Shown: positions 20,860 through 55,628 of the stretch, piece by piece
Numbering within the stretch: position 1 is the stretch's first letter
Layout of the letters: the number at the start of each line of letters is the position of its first letter
Assembly (NCBI GenBank): GCA_964016885.1
Contig: OZ024745.1
Location: 133,734,001-133,798,000 of the forward strand
Length of the DNA stretch: 64,000 nt
Reading direction: 5' to 3'
DNA from: Eledone cirrhosa
Lineage: Eukaryota
Made by a program: the position numbers and the translations under genes
The notes under the pieces: model-generated
Database searches by the model: none
Seen by the model: only the letters and a program-made list of their open reading frames with translations
What the model was told of the DNA's origin: nothing

Positions 20860-21055
20860 ACACAGATACTCTCAAAATCTTATTTGTTTCCCTTCCTTCC
20901 TCTTCTCACTCTATCTTTCTAATTTATTTCTCAATCTAATTTCTGATGAAGGACTAGTGTCCGAAACATAAAGAGTCTTTTCCTGCAATATCAAGCGCTA
21001 AACTTCGTCATTTTTTCTCTTTTGTTTACTTTGTTGTTTCCGTTTACCTATTGCA
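20860..21055 (+). mobile_element. PLE-type 3' tail with degenerate HHR
   Basis: CTGATGA-A-GGAC-tagt-GTCC-GAAAC at 20943-20967; stems I and III not intact; same layout at 39448. Confidence 0.55.
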
Positions 21056-21155: not shown

Positions 21156-21632
21156 TACTATTTGCGAGGGTCATGTTGCCAAATTCAAAAATTAAGTATA
21201 TATTAAATGGGTCATTGTTTGGCTGAGAGGGTGAACTGACTAAGCGAATTTCGTTGAAATCTGCGGTAGCTAATGGTCAACTTCCTTCGGACATGCGCCT
21301 GCGCAGACCGGTGGGGGTGAATTGGTACTCACAGAGGAACGGATGAAGAACCCAAAAGCACACACTTCGTCCGTTCCCACGTCGATTCAACTTGGATTGC
21401 CTCGGAAACATAACCTTATTATGTAACAAGCTGTCTGATGATGTCACGACACTCGCACACAGAACAGTGTGGCCAGTGTCGTCATTGAAATATATATCAC
21501 AGCATTATTATTAAAGGACTTGATCATCTGAAACTACTTTGCTTTTACTTATTCGATATTTACTCCGTCACTCCTATGTGGAAAAAGTACGTTGAGTGCT
21601 TGAATTGAATTTCATCAATGTTTACCCTAAGT
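21156..21632 (+). mobile_element. Non-coding structured element with HHR, bounded by (TA)n
   Basis: Begins with a family C end; 21250-21441 homologous to 44117-44309; contains HHR. Confidence 0.65.
21430..21503 (+). ncRNA. Type I hammerhead ribozyme with long stem II
   Basis: GCTGT-CTGATGA-T..ACGACACT..CACAC/GTGTG..AGTGTCGT..T-GAAA-TATATA-TC-ACAGC; AUC site. Confidence 0.8.
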
Positions 21633-25775: not shown

Positions 25776-25957
25776 TATATACATATATATATGTGTGTGT
25801 ATATATATGCGTGTGTATATATAGATGTGTGTATGTGTATATATGTGTGCGTGTGTATAACACTTAAAATCATTGTGTATGTAATAGCCTCCAATGATAA
25901 GTGTTTAAATCGCGGTTAGTTTCCATTGCCCAATGAAGCAAAAATATTGTGAAAACA

Positions 25958-26785
25958 TGTGTATATATACTTACTTGTGTATATATATATTATCTTGTGA
26001 AAACCTGTGTATATATACTTACTTGTGTATATATATATTATCTTGTGAAAACCTGTGTATATATACTTACTTGTGTATATATATATTATCTTGTGAAAAC
26101 CTGTATATATATACTTACTTGTGTATATATATATTATCTTGTGAAAACCTATGTATATATACTTACTTGTATATATATATATTATCTTGTGAAAACAGGT
26201 GTATATATACTCACTTGTGTATATATATATATTATTTTCTAAAAACCTATGTATATATATGCTTACTTGTGTATATAAATATATTATTTTGTGAAAACCT
26301 GTGTATATATATACTTACTTGTGTATATACATTATCTTGTGAAAACCTGTGTATATATACTTACTTGTGTATATATATTATCTTGTGAAAACCTGTGTAT
26401 ATTTACTTACTTGTGTATATATATATTATCTTGTGAAAACCTGTGTATATATACTTACTTGTGTATATATATTATCTTGTGAAAACCTGTGTATATATAT
26501 TTACTTGTGGATATATTATCTTGTGAAAACCTGTGTATATATACTTACTTGCGTATATATATTATCTTGTGAAAACTTGTGTATATATACTTACTTGTGT
26601 ATATATATTATCTTGTGAAAACCTATGTATATATACTTACCTGTGTATATATATATTATCTTGTGAAAACCTGTGTATATATACTTACTTGTGTATATAT
26701 ATTATCTTGTGAAAACCTGTGTATATATATTTACTTGTGGATATATATTATTTTGTGAAAACATGTGCATACATATTTACATGTG
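25958..26785. repeat. Minisatellite, 38-44 bp unit, about 20 copies
   Basis: TGTGAAAACCTGTGTATATATACTTACTTGTGTATATATATATTATCT repeated. Confidence 0.95.
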
Positions 26786-31593: not shown

Positions 31594-33509
31594 TGGTTAA
31601 CACAAGTAACTACATTAGAGATGTGAATGGTTAACACACAAGTAACTACATTAGAGATGTGAATGGTTAACACAAGTAACTACATTAGAGATGTGAATGG
31701 TTAACACACAAGTAACTACATTAGAGATGTGAATGGTTAACACACAAGTAACTACATTAGAGATGTGAATGGTTAACACACAAGTAACTACATTAGAGAT
31801 GTGAATGGTTAACACACAAGTAACTACATTAGAGATGTGAATGGTTAACACACAAGTAACTACATTAGAGATGTGAATGGTTAACACAAGTAACTACATT
31901 AGAGATGTGAATGGTTAACACAAGTAACTACATTAGAGATGTGAATGGTTAACACAAGTAACTACATTAGAGATGTGAATGGTTAACACAAGTAACTACA
32001 TTAGAGATGTGAATGGTTAACACAAGTAACTACATTAGAGATGTGAATGGTTAACAGAAGTAACTACATTAGAGATGTGAATGGTTAACACAAGTAACTA
32101 CATTAGAGATGTGAATGGTTAACACAAGTAACTACATTAGAGATGTGAATGGTTAACACAAGTAACTACATTAGAGATGTGAATGGTTAACACAAGTAAC
32201 TACATTAGAGATGTGAATGGTTAACACACAAGTAACTACATTAGAGATGTGAATGGTTAACACAAGTAACTACATTAGAGATGTGAATGGTTAACACAAG
32301 TAACTACATTAGAGATGTGAATGGTTAACACAAGTAACTACATTAGAGATGTGAATGGTTAACACAAGTAACTACATTAGAGATGTGAATGGTTAACACA
32401 AGTAACTACATTAGAGATGTGAATGGTTAACAGAAGTAACTACATTAGAGATGTGAATGGTTAACACACAAGTAACTACATTAGAGATGTGAATGGTTAA
32501 CACACAAGTAACTACATTAGAGATGTGAATGGTTAACACACAAGTAACTACATTAGAGATGTGAATGGTTAACACAAGTAACTACATTAGAGATGTGAAT
32601 GGTTAACACAAGTAACTACATTAGAGATGTGAATGGTTAACACAAGTAACTACATTAGAGATGTGAATGGTTAACACAAGTAACTACATTAGAGATGTGA
32701 ATGGTTAACACAAGTAACTACATTAGAGATGTGAATGGTTAACACACAAGTAACTACATTAGAGATGTGAATGGTTAACACACAAGTAACTACATTAGAG
32801 ATGTGAATGGTTAACACACAAGTAACTACATTAGAGATGTGAATGGTTAACACAAGTAACTACATTAGAGATGTGAATGGTTAACACACAAGTAACTACA
32901 TTAGAGATGTGAATGGTTAACACAAGTAACTACATTAGAGATGTGAATGGTTAACACAAGTAACTACATTAGAGATGTGAATGGTTAACACAAGTAACTA
33001 CATTAGAGATGTGAATGGTTAACACACAAGTAACTACATTAGAGATGTGAATGGTTAACACAAGTAACTACATTAGAGATGTGAATGGTTAACACAAGTA
33101 ACTACATTAGAGATGTGAATGGTTAACACAAGTAACTACATTAGAGATGTGAATGGTTAACACACAAGTAACTACATTAGAGATGTGAATGGTTAACACA
33201 CAAGTAACTACATTAGAGATGTGAATGGTTAACACACAAGTAACTACATTAGAGATGTGAATGGTTAACACAAGTAACTACATTAGAGATGTGAATGGTT
33301 AACACACAAGTAACTACATTAGAGATGTGAATGGTTAACACACAAGTAACTACATTAGAGATGTGAATGGTTAACACACAAGTAACTACATTAGAGATGT
33401 GAATGGTTAACACACAAGTAACTACATTAGAGATGTGAATGGTTAACACAAGTAACTACATTAGAGATGTGAATGGTTAACACACAAGTAACTACATTAG
33501 AGATGTGAA
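31594..33509. repeat. Homogeneous 34/36-bp tandem array, about 55 copies
   Basis: TGGTTAACAC(AC)AAGTAACTACATTAGAGATGTGAA, no unique spacers. Confidence 0.97.
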
Positions 33510-34729: not shown

Positions 34730-35645
34730 TTTTTTTTGACCGGCCACCTTCCTGTTGGCAAGGTTGTAAAAGAAAAGAAATTGTCATCCCTTGAATCGCA
34801 AGAATGTTTTGCAAATTTTGAAGGTGCCAGCTATCGCAGCCATTTGTAGACTATGAATTAGGGAGCCGCGCTTTTTGTCCGCAAATCCAATCCAAGTTCA
34901 GTCATACTTTGGTCCAAGCGGGTTGGTATATAACCCGTAGCACCAATAATGATGGGTATGAAGCTAAAGGTGTATCTTGGATACTGGATTTGTAAACTCC
35001 TCATCAATGGTCCATAGATGTCCTCCTTCTCCTGTATTTTTCTGACAAAGTTTACATCAAGTGGGCAGCTGATCTCCATAACAGAACACGTTTTCAATGT
35101 GTGGTCCCAAACAACAATATCAGGCCGGTTGTGCTTTAATTTGGTGGCAGTTTTTATTTTCAGGTCCCACCAGTATTCCTTAGTGCCATCTGTCTCAATA
35201 TATTCTTCCTCGTTTGTTGTTAATTTTGTTTTCCGAAGTGCGCTCCAGATGGTTCTAGCTATCACATCGTGTCTCATGGGGAGGTAGTAGCGAGATGACA
35301 TTCTTTCGCAGCTGGCAACAATGTGGCTTACATCTTCGATCTTTGTTTTACATAGCCTACATTTATCGTCAGCTGCTGGCCCTCCCCTTTTGTGCAGCAG
35401 ATATTTGGTAGGGAGTTCTTGTTCCTGTATTGCATAGAGATATCCCTCAAGGTGTGATGTCATAAACTTGTCGCAACTCCATGCCAGGCTTTTTGAGTGG
35501 TTTATCCCCTCTATGGTCAGTGTTTTACGTCTCAAGTATCCATGCACAACTTTTTCTGTAAATTGGTCAATTTTTTCATCTTGTTTGAACATTGAATAGG
35601 ATCTTCCGATTTCTCTGGGTGAGAGATTTATATCAGGCTTTATTC
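34730..35645 (-). mobile_element. R4/Dong-like non-LTR element, 5'-truncated (ORF 35592-34858)
   Basis: CRLC..HIVASC zinc knuckle, RHD, RPDIVVWD..EISCP, IPIIIGATG (restriction-like endonuclease); frameshifted GTFKICKTF end; A-rich 3' end. Confidence 0.88.
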
Positions 35646-35680
35646 CATGTATGTATGTATGTATGTATGTATGTATGTAT

Positions 35681-36172
35681 GTCCTGGAGAGATGATCCCT
35701 TAGCCTTTGTCAAGGCAGAATTCTAGAAGGAAAACTCTGATATAACACCTGCAACCCTGGTGGTATCCAATGATGTTGACTTGTTCTTCTTTTTGGTAAA
35801 TATCATCTTGGTTAAGAGAGTGGGACTGGCTTTGTGCAGCGCCTTTGCTCACTATAAAAGCTTCACGGCACAGGCATTGCTTTATATCTGGAGATCTCTC
35901 TGCACTTGTCATCACAGGGTACAATGGGCCCAGCACTATGTGTCAGTAATTGTCACAAGTGTAGTGTTTGTACCAGAGTTTTCAAGTCGCTGGCTGGACT
36001 AAAAAGTCACACTCGTTCAGCGCATCAGTAGGGGTTCCCCTACATGGATATAAAGTAGTGGCCGTACTCGAAAACGAGTTGGCAGCCACCATGTATGTAT
36101 GTATGTATGTATGTATGTATGTATGTATGTATGTATGTATGTGTGTATGTATGTATGTATGTATGTATGTAT
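35681..36172 (+). mobile_element. Internally deleted RTE-like element between (TATG)n tracts
   Basis: Reverse complement of 22212-22505 with an extra internal segment. Confidence 0.75.
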
Positions 36173-39569: not shown

Positions 39570-40940
39570 AACTTTGATAACACTGACAGGTTTCGGTTAG
39601 TATTGCCCTAGGCCATGTCTAACTTAATAGCACCACCTGGCGAAGTCTTTCATATCAGGATTTGGGCAACATGGCTCACTCAAGTAGAGTTATTATTTTC
39701 GGAGACATATCCGGGTGTAGGAGGTTTATCCGGGATTTCTTGAAGTCCAAAGACTTCTTGAACTTTATGGGGTCTGCTTCTGTTTTAATGTGTTTTGGTG
39801 TAATGTTAAAGAGAGAAAGAGAGCGGGGCCAATTGAGGTGAAATAACTGTGTCGTATTCTTGTTATGAGATGCGCGTGTGATTCTTGTCGTGGACGGATA
39901 GCACGGGGCCCAAGCCTTGGGTGTACATTAAAGGTGATGCATAATGTTCTTTTCGGCCCATTGAATAACAGCCAGTAGGCCTGACTGAAGGCAAGTCCGG
40001 TCACCCACCTCATTGATGACCTTCCGGAGCTTGGAATGATTTGCGAAGATTCCTATGATGATGTCAGTAATGTCATTAATGTAGATGATGAAAAGAAGTG
40101 GGTCCAACACAGTGCCTTGCGGGACGCCACTGCTGACTTTGGCTGGGCTTGATTTTACTCCTTCGACTACAACAGGTTGGGTTCTGTCTCTCAGGAAACA
40201 CTTGTTCCACTGTAGTAACTTTCCAGAGACACCAATGTTGGATAGTTTTTTCAATAAAACCTTGTGTTCAACTCTGTCAAAGGCCTTGCTGAAATCAAGT
40301 TAGATGGCATCAGTGCTGGAGCCCTCACCCAAGGTTCTCAAAACATAGTCAAAGTGATGCAGGAGCTGCGTTAGGCAGTCTCTTCCATTACGGAACCCAT
40401 GTTGGTTGGAGTTCAGCAGCCTATTGCTTTTGAGAAAGTGGGTTATTCGTGATCTCACCACCCTCTCAAATACCTTGATGATATGAGAAGTGAGTGAGAT
40501 CGGACGGCAAGTTTCCCTTTTTGAAAACTGGGACAACAGACTGGGACAAAAAGTTTTCAGGGATATAGCCAGCAACCAGTGAGTTCCTCCACAGATTAGC
40601 AAGAGGAGATGCACGTTGGTGTCGATACACCTTGAGGACACAAGCAGGGAACCTATCGGGGCCTACTGCTGAATTGTGTTTAATTCGTTTATTGCTGCTA
40701 AGACATCAGGACGCCAAACGTTATGTCCGATATAGTGTGTTGGGGATTAACATCACTGATGCAGCCCAGATCGTCCATATCAGGATTGCTGAAAACAGAG
40801 CAGTATTGTTTCTGCAGTATCTCACCCATTGTTTTGGCATTATCTTGGAGTGTGCTATTTTCATCAATTAGTGGGCCAATAGTGAAGACAGTGACCTTGT
40901 GTTTTTTCGTAAATGAAAAGAACACTTTCTACGTTAATGC
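39570..40940 (-). mobile_element. CR1-like LINE RT remnant
   Basis: RPISLTSHIIKVFE, NQHGFR, SGVPQGTVLDPLLFIIYINDI; several frameshifts and stops. Confidence 0.9.
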
Positions 40941-43047: not shown

Positions 43048-43472
43048 CCTCCATGTACGTCAATACTCATCTTTTTCCATTTCTCCGAGGGTTCTTAACC
43101 CCACTATCAGGCTAAATAATTTCTTTAATTTCTTTAGTCAAAATACGGCGATAGCTTACATTTCTAATAATTTCAAACCCACTCGCTGTTTCGAAAATAT
43201 TCTTACTAGACATTACGGTCGCTAAGTTTATAGCTTCTAATTTGAATGGAAAGAGACGGGTGATGTGTTGGTGTAAATGGTAGCACAGTGGTCCGGATAA
43301 TCAAAGATGTGGGTTCGACTCCCATATACGTCAATACTCATCTTTTTTCCATTTCTCCGAGGGTTCTTAACCCCACTATCAGGCTAAATAATTTCTTTAT
43401 TCAAAATACGGTGATAGCTTACATTTCTAATAATTTCAAACCCACACGCTGTTTCGAAAATATTCTTCTTGA
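43048..43472 (+). mobile_element. Partial tandem repeat carrying a tRNA-like sequence
   Basis: 43050-43210 repeats at 43321-43472; third copy folded back at 48697-48930. Confidence 0.75.
43262..43333 (+). tRNA. tRNA-like cloverleaf, probably pseudo-tRNA (loop reads GGA)
   Basis: Acceptor GATGTGT/ATACGTC, D arm GTGT/GCAC, T arm GTGGG-TTCGACT-CCCAT, T6 run about 10 nt downstream; C33 and T37 are non-canonical. Confidence 0.6.
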
Positions 43473-43680: not shown

Positions 43681-44116
43681 ATATATATATATGTGTGTGT
43701 ACGTAGGTATATATATATATATACGATACTATGGTTCAATATATAGATAATCCAATATTGATACACTTTTCATAATTTAAAACTATAATTTTTACATCTT
43801 CCTATTTAGTATTTTTTTTATTAAATTCAAACAAGATTTTAACTTTTAATTTCTAATTTCCAATCTTATTACTAATTTTAATTTTAATTTCCATTTTGAG
43901 ACAATATCTTGACTAAAGGATTAAGTCTATATTCTCGTTGTGAGTGATGGTCAATTCTATTGAAACTTATACTCTACCTCCAGATTTGGTCGGCTCCTGC
44001 TGAACGTGGGACTATCAGTAAACTATAACTTAGTGGCAGACGTGAACCCTGTAACCGTGTGACCTTACTGGCTGGGTTAGGGGAGATTGGTTAGGGAGGG
44101 TCTTGCCTAGGCTACT

Positions 44117-44309
44117 TTCGTTGTCTTAGGTAGTAGTTAGATGGTAAACTTCCTTCATACTTGCGCCTGGGCAAAGCTGTGGAGGGGAATTAAGGCTCCC
44201 AACGGAACGGGTGAAGGTTTCAAAATCATCAACTTTGTCCGTTCCCTTGACGTTTTCATTTGGATTGCCTCGAGAACGTAACCTTATTATGTAAGAAGCT
44301 GTCTGGTGA
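44117..44309 (+). ncRNA. Structured module, homolog of 21250-21441, truncated at the HHR core
   Basis: Two hairpins conserved with compensatory changes; ends AGCTGT-CTGGTGA then (TA)n. Confidence 0.55.
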
Positions 44310-44514
44310 GATCAGATATATATGCGTGTGTGTGTGTGTATTTACATATATACATTTATATATATATTTATATATAACCAAAACACCACACCACGCAACT
44401 CACACCATTGCTCCCCACCACTACCATGTTACTATGATCACCCCACCCCCACCTACCATACATACCAAAACATTCCTCATAACTAAAAACCAATCGAAAC
44501 AACATAAACTGACC

Positions 44515-45541: not shown

Positions 45542-46033
45542 TCAATCCTGGTAGCGTTTGTAATATGAAAATGTAGATTTCAAGCGATGGTTACAGTATA
45601 ACGATCGCTCTATTCTGTTATTTAATAAAATATTTTTGGATTTCATAATACAAAATAATTCAATATTACACAATTTACAAAATTCTTGTCCTTGGAAATA
45701 TGCAGAGGCAGCCACTATTATATCCCATTTTAGGTTAAATTGTTGGTTATTTTCGCGCAGCTGCCAAGCCTTGTCTGCGAGTGTTGTTACATAACGCTGG
45801 TTTTTATGTTTTATCGAGTAACGATGTCTATAAAGGCGAGATTCGTAGGAGGTAGCTGTCGACCCCACATAGTACCACTTCTGGCTACCCGATTCGATAG
45901 TGCATTTGTATATGATGTTGCGTTCAAGACACTGATTATTCAACGGACACATTCCTGGTTGGACACAGTTACAGTTATAATTTTGCGTTGTTGTATTGGC
46001 ATGGATGGGTTGATGAGGTTGCTTAGGCAGCAT
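45542..46033 (-). pseudogene. PLE GIY-YIG endonuclease, frameshifted from RT
   Basis: CNC....CPL...CL..NIIYKC......YYVGST....RL..H, CKLC..E, LLNNR. Confidence 0.88.
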
Positions 46034-46960
46034 GGGATGTTGTTTGTTGTTTTGTGATGTTATAGCCGATTTTTTTACGTGTATTGTTATGTGTTGGAAG
46101 GCGTTTATACAACCGTTTTGCGTTAAGCTTTTTTATATGTTTTTCAATATTAGGGGCGGTTGAATATGAAAGTCGAATAGTGTTAGGGTTTAAGATTTTA
46201 TTATATTTATGTGATGTTGGAAAGTGAACTAATCGAAAGAATTGTGAGGGTAGATTGGTTTTAATAGAGTTGTTATAGACCGGGTTGTACCATATATACT
46301 CTTTACATCGCCTTCTGTTTTGTGGTGAGCGACTATTAGTGTGTCTATTGTGGTAGTGTATGTAGGGTGGCGATTCTATGCTATTTCTACCTCTATGAGA
46401 TTTATTTTGGGTGTTTCGGTGATCATCGACTATATACTCTATATTATCTAGGTGTCCAGCCTTCCTAAGTGCATCATCATAATATTCGGCATGTTCTTTG
46501 AAGGTTTGCTGGTTGGACGACAGGCGGGAGATTCTAAGGGAAATATTTCTAGGGATGGATTTAATTATAGAGGGTAGATGGTTAGAACCCGTATTTACAT
46601 ATTTAAGGTTCTCATTTAGTTTATGGAACAGTTTAATCGTTTCTGTATTGAGATTCAAAGTAACATCAAGGAAATTAACCTCTTTGAGGTTATATTCAAA
46701 CGTAATATTTAATCCTAGTTCCTTAAAAAGCTTTCTAATATTTTTACGCATCCTTTCTAAATTCTGGTTATTCATATGCTTAACTAATAGGAGCGCATCG
46801 TCACGTTATTCATATGCTTAACTAATAGGAGCGCATCTCCACCGTGGAGATCCTTGAATGTTCCTTGTAGTCTGTGGGTGAGATAAATTCCCACAAGATC
46901 AGTTACTTCCGCCGAATCATTGGAACCCATAGTTATATCAAAATTAGAAGGTCTATCAAT
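46023..46960 (-). pseudogene. PLE reverse transcriptase C-terminal half
   Basis: [20 protein letters not shown] (motif B'), RDDALL, VNFLDVTLNL, YVNTGSNH.P; local duplication disrupts the catalytic motif. Confidence 0.88.
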
Positions 46961-50407: not shown

Positions 50408-53400
50408 TGTATGTTAGTGTATGTGTGGGGCTGGGTGTATATATGTTAGTGTATGTGTGGGGCTGGGTGTATATATGTTAGTGTATCTGTGGAGCTGGGT
50501 GTATATATGTTAGTGTATTTGTGGAGCTGGGTGTATATATGTTAGTGTATGTGTGGGGCTGGGTGTATATATGTTAGTATATGTGTGGGGCTGGGTGTAT
50601 ATATGTTAGTATATGTGTGGGGCTGGGTGTATATATGTTAGTGTATCTGTGGAACTGGGTGTATATATGTTAGTGTATGTGTGGGGCTGGGTGTATATAT
50701 GCTAGTGTATGTGTGGGGCTGGGTGTATATATGTTAGTGTATGTGTGGGGCTGGGTGTATATATGCTAGTGTATGTGTGGAACTGGGTGTATATATGTTA
50801 GTGTATATGTGGAGCTGGGTGTATATATGTTAGTGTATATGTGGAGCTGGGTGTATATATGTTAGTATATGTGTGGAGCTGGGTGTATATATGTTAGTGT
50901 ATGTGTGGGGCTGGGTGTATATATGCTAGTGTATGTGTGGAGCTGGGTGTATATATGCTAGTGTATTTGTGGGGCTGGGTGTATATATGTTAGTGTATGT
51001 GTGGAGCTGGGTCTATATATGTTAGTGTATCTGTGGAACTGGGTGTATATATGTTAGTATATGTGTGGGGCTGGGTGTATATATGTTAGTATATATGTGG
51101 GGCTGGGTGTATATATGTTAGTGTACCTGTGGAGCTGGGTGTATATATGTTAGTGTATGTGTGGGGCTGGGTCTATATATGTTAGTGTACCTGTGGAGCT
51201 GGGTGTATATATGTTAGTGTATGTGTGGAGCTGGGTGTATATATGTTAGTATATGTGTGGGGCTGGGTGTATATATGTTAGTGTATCTGTGGAGCTGGGT
51301 GTATATATGTTAGTGTATGTGTGGAGCTGGGTGTATATATGTTAGTGTATGTGTGGAGCTGGGTGTATATATGTTAGTGTATCTGTGGAGCTGGGTGTAT
51401 ATATGTTAGTGTATGTGTGGAGCTGGGTGTATATATGTTAGTGTATCTGTAGAGCTGGGTGTATATATGTTAGTGTATATGTGGAGCTGGGTGTATATAT
51501 GTTACTATATGTGTGGAGCTGGGTGTATATATGTTAGTGTATCTGTGGAACTGGGTGTATATATGTTAGTGTATGTGGGGAGCTGGGTGTATATATATTA
51601 GTGTATGTGTGGAGCTGGGTGTATATATATTAGTATATGTGTGGGGCTGGGTGTATATATGTTAGTGTATCTGTGGAACTGGGTGTATATATGTTAGTGT
51701 ATGTGTGGAGCTGGCTGTATATATGTTAGTATATGTGTGGAGCTGGGTGTATATATGTTAGTGTATGTGTGGAGCTGGGTGTATATATGTTAGTGTATCT
51801 GTGGAACTGGGTGTATATATGTTAGTGTATCTGTGGAACTGGGTGTATATATGTTAGTGTATGTGTGGGGCTGGGTGTATATATGTTAGTATATGTGTGG
51901 AGCTGGGTGTATATATGTTAGTGTATCTGTGGAACTGGGTGTATATATGTTAGTGTATGTGTGGAGCTGGGTGTATATATGCTAGTGTATGTGTGGAGCT
52001 GGGTGTATATATGTTAGTGTATCTGTGGAGCTGTGTGTATATATGTTAGTATATCTGTGGAGCTGGGTCTATATATGTTAGTATATGTGTGGAGCTGGGT
52101 GTATATATGTTAGTGTATATGTGGAGCTGGGTGTATATATGTTAGTATATGTGTGGAGCTGGGTGTATATATGCTAGTGTATGTGTGGTGCTGGGTGTAT
52201 ATATGCTAGTGTATCTGTGGAGCTGGGTGTATATATGTTAGTGTATGTGTGGGGCTGGGTGTATATATGTTAGTGTATGTGTGGTGCTGGGTGTATATAT
52301 GTTAGTATATGTGTGGAGCTGGGTGTATATATATTAGTGTATGTGTGGGGCTGGGTGTATATATGCAAGTGTATGTGTGGAGCTGGGTGTATATATGTTA
52401 GTATATGTGTGGGGCTGGGTGTATATATGCTAGTGTATGTGTGGAGCTGGGTGTATATATGTTACTGTATGTGTGGGGCTGGGTGTATAAATGTTAGTAT
52501 ATGTGTGGAGCTGGGTGTATATATATTAGTATATGTGTGGAGCTGGGTGTATATATGCTAGTGTATGTGTGGAGCTGGGTGTATATATGTTAGTGTATCT
52601 GTGGAGCTGGGTGTATATATGTTAGTGTATATGTGGAGCTGGGTGTATATATGTTAGTGTATATGTGGGGCTGGATGTATATATGTTAGTGTATGTGTGG
52701 AGCTGGGTGTATATATACTAGTATATGTGTGGAGCTGGGTGTATATATGTTAGTGTATATGTGGAGCTGGGTGTATATATGCTAGTGTATGTGTGGAGCT
52801 GGGTGTATATATGCTAGTGTATTTGTGGAGCTGGGTGTATATATGTTAGTGTATGTGTGGAGCTGGGTGTATATATGTTAGTGTATCTGTGGAGCTGGGT
52901 GTATATATGTTAGTGTATATGTGGAGCTGGGTGTATATATGTTAGTGTATATGTGGAGCTGGGTGTATATATGTTAGTGTATCTGTGGAGCTGGGTGTAT
53001 ATATGTTAGTGTATGTGTGGAGCTGGGTGTATATATGTTAGTGTATGTGTGGAGCTGGGTGTATATATGTTAGTATATGTGTGGAGCTGGGTGTATATAT
53101 ATTAGTGTATCTGTGGAGCTGGGTGTATGTATATTAGTATATGTGTGGAGCTGGGTGTATATATGCTAGTGTATTTGTGGAGCTGGGTGTATATATGTTA
53201 GTGTGTGTGGAGATGGGTGTATATATGTTAGTGTATTTGTGGAGCTGGGTGTATATATGCTAGTGTATTTGTGGAGCTGGGTGTATATATATTAGTGTAT
53301 GTGTGGAGCTGGGTGTATATATGTTAGTGTATGTGTGGGGCTGGGTGTATGTATGTTAGTGTATCTGTGGAGCTGGGTGTATATATGTTAGTGTATGTGT

Positions 53401-55628
53401 GGAGCTGGGTGTATATATGCTAGTGTATTTGTGGAGCTGGGTGTATATATGTTAGTGTATGTGTGGAGCTGGGTGTATATATGTTAGTGTATGTGTGGAA
53501 CTGGGTGTATATATGTTAGTGTATGTGTGGAGCTGGGTGTATATATGTTAGTATATGTGTGGGGCTGGGTGTATATATGTTAGTGTATCTGTGGAGCTGG
53601 GTGTATATATGTTAGTGTATGTGTGGAGCTGGGTGTATATATGCTAGTGTATGTGTGGTGCTGGGTGTATATATGCTAGTGTATCTGTGGAGCTGGGTGT
53701 ATATATGTTAGTGTATGTGTGGTGCTGGGTGTATATATGTTAGTATATGTGTGGAGCTGGGTGTATATATATTAGTGTATGTGTGGGGCTGGGTGTATAT
53801 ATGCTAGTGTATTTGTGGAGCTGGGTATATATATATTAGTGTATGTGTGGAGCTGGGTGTATATATGCTAGTGTATGTGTGGAGCTGGGTGTATATATGT
53901 TAGTGTATATGTGGAGCTGGGTGTATATATGTTAGTGTATGTGTGGAGCTGGGTGTATATATGTTAGTGTATGTGTGGAGCTGGGTGTATATATACTAGT
54001 AAATGTGTTGAGCTGGGTGTATATATGCTAGTGTATTTGTGGAGCTGGGTGTATATATGTTAGTGTATGTGTGGAGCTGGGTGTATATATGTTAGTGTAT
54101 GTGTGGAGCTGGGTGTATATATGTTAGTGTATGTATGGAGCTGGGTGTATATATACTAGTAAATGTGTGGAGCTGGGTGTATATATGCTAGTGTATTTGT
54201 GGAGCTGGGTGTATATATATTAGTGTATGTGTGGAGCTGGGTGTATATATGCTAGTGTATGTGTGGAGCTGGGTGTATATATGTTAGTGTATATGTGGAG
54301 CTGGGTGTATATATGTTAGTGTATGTGTGGAGCTGGGTGTATATATGTTAGTGTATGTGTGGAGCTGGGTGTATATATGTTAGTGTATGTGTGGAGCTGG
54401 GTGTATATATGTTAGTGTATGTGTGGAACTGGGTGTATATATGCTAGTGTATGTATGGAGATGGGTGTATATATATTAGTGTATGTGTGGGGCTGGGTCT
54501 ATATATGCTAGTGTATGTGTGGAGCTGGGTGTATATATGTTAGTGTATGTGTGGAGCTGGGTGTATATATGTTAGTATATGTGTGGGGCTGGGTGTATAT
54601 ATGTTAGTCTATATGTGGAGCTGGGTGTATATATGTTAGTGTATGTGTGGAGCTGGGTGTATATATGCTAGTGTATGTGTGGAGCTGGGTGTATATATGT
54701 TAGTGTATGTGTGGATCTGGGTGTATCTATGTTAGTGTATGTGTGGAGCTGGGTGTATATATGTTAGTGTATCTGTGGAGCTGGGTGTATATATGTTAGT
54801 GTATATGTGGAGCTGGGTGTATATATGTTAGTGTATGTGTGGAGCTGGGTGTATATATGTTAGTGTATGTGTGGTGCTGGTTGTATATATGCTAGTGTAT
54901 GTGTGGAGCTGGGTGTATATATGCTAGTGTATGTGTGGAGCTGGGTGTATATATGCTAGTGTATGTGTGGAGCTGGGTGTATATATATTAGTGTATGTGT
55001 GGAGCTGGGTGTATATATGTTAGTGTATGTGTGGGGCTGGGTCTATATATGCTAGTATATGTGTGGAGCTGGGTGTATATATGCTAGTGTATGTGTGGAG
55101 CTGGGTGTATATATATTAGTGTATGTGTGGAGCTGGGTGTATATATGTTAGTATATGTGTGGGGCTGGGTGTATATATGTTAGTGTATCTGTGGAGCTGG
55201 GTGTATATATATTAGTGTATGTGTGGAGCTGGGTGTATATATGTTAGTGTATGTGTGGGGCTGGGTCTATATATGCTAGTATATGTGTGGAGCTGGGTGT
55301 ATATATATTAGTGTATGTGTGGGGCTGGGTGTATATATGCTAGTGTATGTGTGGAGCTGGGTGTATATATGTTAGTGTATATGTGGAGCTGGGTGTATAT
55401 ATGTTAGTGTATGTGTGGAGCTGGGTGTATATATGCTAGTATATGTGTGGAGCTGGGTGTATATATATTAGTGTATGTGTGGGGCTGGGTCTATATATGT
55501 TAGTGTATGTGTGGAGCTGGGTGTATATATGTTAGTATATGCGTGGAGCTGGGTGTATATATGTTAGTGTATGTGTGGAGCTGGGTGTATATATGTTAGT
55601 GTATGTGTGGACCTGGGCGTATATATGC
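50408..55628. repeat. 30-bp minisatellite, about 170 copies
   Basis: ATATGTTAGTGTATGTGTGGAGCTGGGTGT with point variants. Confidence 0.97.

Follow-up and report, generated by a model that had tools for sequence, protein, structure and literature searches.

Directly 5' of a predicted hammerhead ribozyme in a non-coding repeat of Eledone cirrhosa lies a segment that we read, with confidence evenly poised, as a pLTR-like internal promoter or leader that also folds as an RNA three-way junction under purifying selection. Two copies of the repeat occur in the 64,000-nucleotide stretch of DNA that was analysed (the window), and the reading draws on these together with related copies from the whole assembly. 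A promoter role was absent from the functions offered in the first-pass annotation (RT binding, translation or a second catalytic element) and, judged from the sequence, is at least as likely as those. Of the three, translation is unlikely in a unit without an ORF, a second catalytic element found no support, and RT binding in the sense of RT priming is placed elsewhere, at fixed 3' ends 120 and 200 nt downstream of the hammerhead core.

The repeat unit and its copies

The copies in the window, and the tail of the younger one, are as follows.

21204..21631, + strand: copy A, a 5'-truncated member of the young family A, ending at the second fixed 3' end and followed by (TA)n
21518..21631, + strand: tail of copy A, with two fixed 3' ends at ~21554 and 21631 according to the 3'-end tally of scored copies
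43725..44314, + strand: copy B, of the older subfamily B1, 5'-truncated and broken within the hammerhead, with the segment at 44122-44295

The homolog that had been reported at 44117-44309 for a module at 21250..21441 was recovered as a match at 44104-44314 with 75% identity over 206 nt (E 9e-34). The idea of a discrete conserved module of 190 nt was not sustained, as homology covers the whole unit of ~1.3 kb and the segment is no more alike than the rest: identity between A and B per 50 nt is 0.70-0.78 in the segment, within the 0.58-0.96 of the remainder. The limits at 190 nt arose because both window copies are truncated. The segment is GC-rich in an AT-rich setting, as had been noted, with a GC content of 0.46-0.64 against 0.30 in the flanking 1 kb. 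The reported lack of an ORF extends to the entire unit, in which the longest stop-free run is 78-108 codons in the A, I and B masters and 103-135 in three E copies. Coding on either strand was rejected, the frames open in both window copies being closed in the subfamily masters. Copy B reads CTGGTGA at the core (44303-44309), stops at 44314 into (TA)n and is predicted to have no working hammerhead; B1 copies average 8% from their own master, and the divergence between the window copies is in part private decay of copy B. Within the window a covariance model of the segment (R1) gave high scores only for the two known copies, other scores being those of generic fold-backs. A short inverted piece resembling the tail of another family, N, lies directly before copy A (21166-21203).

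The host unit is ~1.30 kb long, non-coding, flanked by (TA)n and variably 5'-truncated, and it occurs in partial tandems, in inversions and in some full arrays. Copies number in the thousands. The segment of copy A gave 2,235 first-look candidates in the 3.0-Gb assembly (the best 40 of the 2,235, when scored, were 98-100% identical), that of copy B gave 1,734 at 75-86% identity, and the exact hammerhead pattern gave 1,853 matches against 0 for a control pattern. Copies have two fixed 3' ends of the Penelope type, ~120 and ~200 nt past the start of the core, and the two 10-nt bins at these positions account for 51/60 scored copies (7/94 family-D rows in the tally had no match). At ~80 nt, the optional tail piece between the two ends exceeds the 30-40 bp reported for PLEs. 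Head-to-tail joints, and an array at G000:C1:130.88-130.89 Mb whose units are spaced 1.31-1.32 kb apart, show a non-coding tandem repeat in which every unit has a type I hammerhead. The multi-unit arrays of family A at that locus (G000:C1:130882147-130893763) stand in an inverted pair and are the most retrozyme-like arrangement seen. Older B and intermediate I members have the same short unit as A. In DNA sequencing runs, family-A-like copies were found in organisms A and B, and scraps only in organism C.

A hammerhead in a terminal repeat (by sequence and fold), 5'-truncated copies in partial-tandem or inverted arrangement, and two discrete 3' ends are all present, and truncation, inversions, partial tandems and 3' ends of this kind belong to PLE anatomy in the parts of PMC8557442 and PMC11167929 that deal with it. 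The ~1.3-kb unit has no ORF for an RT with a GIY-YIG endonuclease, such as marks an autonomous PLE. Among 455 profile matches over 366 sequences no PLE ORF was consistently attached to the repeat, and no autonomous PLE sharing sequence with the unit was found in the 366 sequences. With no ORF in the unit and none attached, the repeat is therefore classed as a non-autonomous Penelope derivative, near the non-LTR retrozymes but larger. A broken Penelope-type ORF fragment beside copy B at 45542-46805 (- strand; RT C-terminus and a GIY-YIG-like domain with a frameshift) was considered as a partner and rejected, since it lies on the opposite strand, shares no sequence with the repeat and is a separate insertion.

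The lineage comprises at least ten subfamily masters at 57-94% identity, which fall into five sister groups, old and young (A, B, I, D and E). Group D, an older group found by pattern searches, has 55-76% identity to A and B over the segment, and E, also found by pattern searches, has 56-62%. A further family in the sister-family listing, P, proved to be a false positive caused by an RTE-type coding stretch. A metagenome scan with the hairpin 2 arms returned three unrelated palindromes with neither a hammerhead nor a profile match.

Predicted fold and conservation of the segment

That the module stands directly upstream of a hammerhead was borne out for copy A, which it adjoins with core, GAAA and cut site complete.

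21411..21517, + strand: PLE-type type I hammerhead of copy A, from sequence and fold, with the architecture seen in the hammerheads described in PMC4209133
21435-21441: core; with a long stem II, GAAA at 21487-21490 and a palindromic TATATA stem III
C21498: residue after which the cut is predicted
21414-21417/21514-21517 and 21430-21434/21499-21503: extended stem I (CCTT/AAGG and GCTGT/ACAGC)

The sequence TAACCTTATTATGTAA, which had been described as leading into stem I, is conserved as claimed, but it is part of the ribozyme itself, in the extended stem I, and not of the module. The stretch TAACCTTATT... (the TAACCTT... tail) pairs with sequence past the cut site, extends helix I and therefore belongs to the ribozyme; the CCTT/AAGG pairing is invariant in 9/9 masters. 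Small hammerhead motifs of other Penelope families occur on the + strand at 20934-20975, 1578 and 2234.

Upstream of the ribozyme the following parts of the fold were predicted.

21260..21271, + strand: 5' strand of the predicted closing stem P0, pairing with 21394-21406; in the MFE of the A, I, B and E masters, lost in D
21394..21406, + strand: 3' strand of P0, holding ATTGC at -39/-40 from the core in 10/10 masters
21281..21319, + strand: hairpin 1, whose pairing register shifts between families and whose apex stem is lost in D
21319..21393, + strand: hairpin 2, with a 14-bp core (21331-21344/21369-21382), an inner 4 bp, a 16-nt loop (21349-21364) and an imperfect lower stem

Both hairpins had been claimed for both window copies, and both were found there, hairpin 2 with arms at 21336-21348/21365-21377 and 44204-44216/44233-44245, together with the arms of hairpin 1. 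Taken singly, the window copies fold weakly better than shuffles (A, z -2.0, 6/200 as good; B, z -1.2, 23/200), and the hairpin 2 core of copy A carries two private changes. Family A, the youngest, has lost pairs and has the weakest fold, though it is very active. The A, I and B masters fold as a three-way junction of P0, hairpin 1 and a long hairpin 2. In stability, hairpin 2 surpasses every other 80-nt sense window of the unit in these masters (z -4.4, -4.5 and -6.5). Six A/I/B masters gave sense z of -2.5 to -6.1 against -1.0 to -2.2 for antisense. The D masters gave -1.7 to -4.4 on both strands, and in D and E the antisense fold is as good as or better than the sense fold; the sense strand is thus indicated as the folded strand in these predictions by A, I and B only.

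Group E was chosen by eye among 100 listed rows for its hairpin-2-like arms, and its master returned the same junction of P0, hairpin 1 and hairpin 2 de novo, in both MFE and centroid (z -5.0 sense, -4.7 antisense). In E the hairpin 2 core retains 13/14 pairs; one pair has changed from C-G to G-C (27/30 copies) and another from A-U to G-C (23/30 copies; p ~0.02 for the two). P0 is restored in E with Watson-Crick pairs in place of G-U ones, and hairpin 2 has no lower stem there. All five sister groups preserve a hairpin 2 core of 13-14 bp.

Selection was assessed on majority masters built for each subfamily instead of on raw copies, because dead copies decay neutrally; those of the old families derive from 4-23 copies and carry CpG-decay noise. 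A set of nine masters covered families A-D, with E and subgroup B1b left out. In this set the hairpin 2 core took 9 parsimony steps in 28 columns, several of them resembling CpG noise, against 19 steps in 16 loop columns. The spacer of hairpin 2 is a constant 24 nt in the nine masters and 24-26 nt across the five sister groups. Substitutions avoid the arms of hairpin 2 under a random-position null (p 0.0006 sense, 0.0016 antisense), and the choice of letters under a same-position null showed no pairing excess in the nine A-D masters (p 0.68). For E the same-position null gave p 0.02 sense and 0.01 antisense. Hairpin 1 passed neither null (p 0.42 and 0.28).

Significant covariation in a deep alignment, whose absence the first-pass annotation named as grounds for refutation, was found neither in the nine A-D masters nor in 46 raw copies. 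In the nine masters 22/54 derived pair states were canonical against 21.1 expected (p 0.44), and G-U states numbered 19 against 12 A-C states (p 0.14). The hammerhead, run as a control in the same test, reached 8/14 against 5.9 (p 0.085), and the power of the test is therefore low. The raw-copy alignment (A2, 46 of 54 copies, eight gappy ones excluded) showed two-sided change at 8 pairs, where shuffled alignments gave 9.1, and a score of 0.136 against 0.134; an excess of cells (32 against 16) came mostly from one pair, and RNAalifold gave only -1.6 kcal/mol. The Rfam search that had been asked for, run at gathering and E-value thresholds, found no known family over the segment, its matches being microsatellites outside and one tRNA-like match at 43262; the hammerhead of copy A was missed by Rfam too.

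The proposal of an unannotated RNA domain thus stands in part: no Rfam family matches, hairpin 2 is stable and its arms are spared, and E refolds with compensatory pairs, while the covariation test failed. The support for it is real, if moderate. Selection acts on hairpin 2, and the whole three-way junction likely forms, short of covariation standards.

Candidate promoter motifs and competing readings

One conserved motif lies between P0 and hairpin 1.

21275..21279, + strand: GGTCA-type conserved motif, GT(C/A)A standing 158-160 nt before CUGANGA in 10/10 masters

The region of hairpin 1 holds ACTTCCT at 21280-21286, which we take to be an ETS-like motif, and GCGCCTGCGCA at 21295-21305, presumably NRF1-like; transcription-factor motifs were matched by simple patterns, not matrices. 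TGCGCA lies at -131 to -136 from the core in 9/10 masters, and, although D and E have indels, motifs keep a fixed distance from the hammerhead. The ETS-like motif is absent from D, in which CGCCTGCGCA remains although the apex of hairpin 1 is lost. Family E retains the TGCG/CGCA stem, with changes in the middle and spacing of the NRF1-like motif.

Autonomous Penelope families in the same genome have motifs at the corresponding place. Family N (L121-L150, for example L143:2-1390, and also L019, L041 and L047) is young, has a near-intact RT and GIY-YIG ORF by Pfam, and its pattern gave at least 6,793 matches against 0 for the control. Its pLTR carries what we take to be ETS-, NRF1- and YY1-like motifs between the stop codon and a compact hammerhead, and makes the family a clean candidate for PLE promoter mapping. 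A second autonomous family, L330 (3100-3700), has 62% protein identity to N and a tail-to-tail inverted arrangement; before its hammerhead stand motifs that we assume to be CCAAT-, NRF1- and YY1-like. Both families are unstructured at the position of the segment (z +0.1 to +0.7 and -1.6). In Penelope of D. virilis, in the account of its pLTR in PMC2377424, this part of the pLTR holds both the promoter and the start site, which partial tandems place in front of a full unit.

A partial-tandem insertion of the present repeat would put a truncated copy with the segment in front of a full unit, where the segment would act like the Penelope pLTR in driving transcription. The segment's downstream copy would then be transcribed just ahead of the second hammerhead, and the junction may keep the upstream RNA self-paired, so that the long stem I can form. 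An autonomous Penelope RT/endonuclease partner would begin copying at the two tail sites, using uncut or religated RNA in the manner of Poseidon. In most inserted copies truncation has taken away the segment in part or whole, so that it would matter for master copies and not for each insertion.

A quite different role, tentative and on balance improbable, though of the alternatives the one to take most seriously, is that of a dedicated RNA handle through which a partner Penelope RT, or else a host protein, is captured in trans, with the promoter motifs incidental. The Alu domain plays such a capture role for LINE-1. Hairpin 2, its core near-invariant and its spacer 24-26 nt long, is present in all five non-coding groups, the two autonomous families are unstructured at the same place, and E keeps the TGCG/CGCA stem while the NRF1-like spacing breaks. 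Against this, the weakest fold is that of family A, which is very active, and the partner was not found among the 366 sequences, so that the fold may be present in the partner's pLTR too; moreover the Anolis PLE assay, as set out in PMC11167929, needs RNA downstream of the hammerhead and finds the upstream pLTR dispensable. At the same tentative level, the ~150-nt junction abutting the hammerhead might be a cis device that hijacks the Penelope RT in trans or gates the ribozyme. It would then be the first structured recruitment domain for retrozyme-like elements, and one absent from the autonomous Penelope families of the same genome. Selection on DNA alone, acting on promoter motifs and on two inverted binding sites a set distance apart, with the RNA fold as a by-product, we consider unlikely. 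The core arms are conserved in sequence and do not covary across A-D, the folding signals of D and E are equal on both strands, and the persistence of CGCCTGCGCA in D and the fixed motif spacings fit as well; but E has two two-sided changes in the core, two more occur in the lower stem, G-U pairs become Watson-Crick in P0 of E, and A, I and B have a sense-strand bias. The retention of the TGCG/CGCA stem in E while the middle of the motif changes also counts against a pure-DNA reading.

It is very unlikely that the hairpin is an old fold-back from template switching, inherited without selection and homogenised between its arms. Such elements constantly make inversions. Of 48 5' junctions lying between -250 and -10, six are located at the 5' edge of hairpin 2 (-101 to -99; p ~0.006 after scanning all 3-nt windows, post hoc), which shows an interaction of the hairpin with copying. 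The six, five junctions and one internal deletion, are in family A copies L168, L190, L268, L294, L301 and L312, with inner arms reading ...TGA.AAACCC, and may reflect cDNA fold-back and template switching; an apparent cluster at -192 was a subfamily deletion, and its seven rows were dropped before the count. Homogenisation alone does not yield arms that are near-invariant while the loop turns over, and the spacer length is held and the hairpin persists at 57-62% identity. It is highly improbable that the segment is another ribozyme, or a retained spliceosomal intron with its end at helix I. Penelope has an intron that ends at helix I, as reported in the hammerhead survey of PMC4209133, and A and B have AG before the helix-I strand with TAAC ~19 nt upstream. 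E lacks both TAAC and AG, however, donor sites are weak, and no genomic copies with the segment cut out were found (one pattern, donors about -180 to -150). For a second ribozyme there was no Rfam ribozyme match, though Rfam misses this hammerhead too, and unpaired residues are not invariant beyond short motifs. SECIS elements occur in Naiad PLEs according to the relevant part of PMC8557442. A SECIS element was rejected here, as a unit without an ORF cannot place it 3' of a UGA-containing ORF and hairpin 2 is by inspection a plain Watson-Crick/G-U stem, where a SECIS would have a tandem G-A quartet.

Relation to known elements

The minimal type I hammerheads of PLE pLTRs treated by Cervera and de la Pena (2014, PMC4209133) resemble that of copy A in the long helix II, the 5-bp helix I, the palindromic helix III suiting dimer cleavage and the thousands of dispersed truncated copies. 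The conserved extension of helix I and the ORF-less unit set the present repeat apart from them as characterised there, and that paper's description of these hammerheads includes no structured domain 5' of the ribozyme. Nor was a description of such a domain found in the literature covered; the family may be catalogued in Repbase, Dfam or supplements. The animal non-LTR retrozymes, which have been proposed to be non-autonomous PLE derivatives (PMC7229834; bioRxiv 10.64898/2026.07.22.740005), share non-coding tandem units and a type I hammerhead in the outlines given by those two reports. The unit of ~1.3 kb is nonetheless larger than the small monomers of that class, for which the same accounts give ~300 bp (PMC7229834) and 51-972 bp (bioRxiv 10.64898/2026.07.22.740005), and it differs from the retrozymes portrayed there in its PLE-type minimal hammerhead, PLE tail ends, 5' truncation and inversion, and mostly dispersed copies. 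The pLTR of D. virilis Penelope (Schostak et al. 2008, PMC2377424) has the same position upstream of the hammerhead and the same partial tandem before a full unit; compared with that pLTR as mapped there, the present segment has GC-rich motifs that we would name NRF1/ETS-like and a long hairpin, is a putative promoter, and has no DPE or intron shown. Poseidon of Anolis (Frangieh et al. 2024, PMC11167929) likewise has AT-rich targets and, past the hammerhead site, two fixed 3' ends, but in the experiments of that paper it is autonomous and its upstream pLTR is unneeded in vitro, whereas the segment described here is upstream of the initiation sites.

This lineage bears on how retrozymes and other non-autonomous Penelope derivatives are transcribed and mobilised. 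Its graded masters, defined fold, fixed spacing and natural compensatory variants amount to ready-made mutants for promoter, ribozyme-folding and RT-binding roles. Were the segment merely a promoter with a hairpin, it would still give a clear pLTR map in an unusually large retrozyme-like element.

Other features of the window include the tRNA-like Rfam match at 43262-43333 (+ strand, 45 bits), which is probably the head of a tRNA-derived SINE; many family A copies (e.g. L014, L025 and L030) carry an insertion of a related SINE at their ATT-rich tail. LINE fragments with Pfam zf-RVT and RVT_1 domains lie at 34858-35709 and 39928-40662, both on the - strand, and long minisatellites of 32, 34 and 48 bp occupy 50410-55627, 31594-33509 and 25947-26785.
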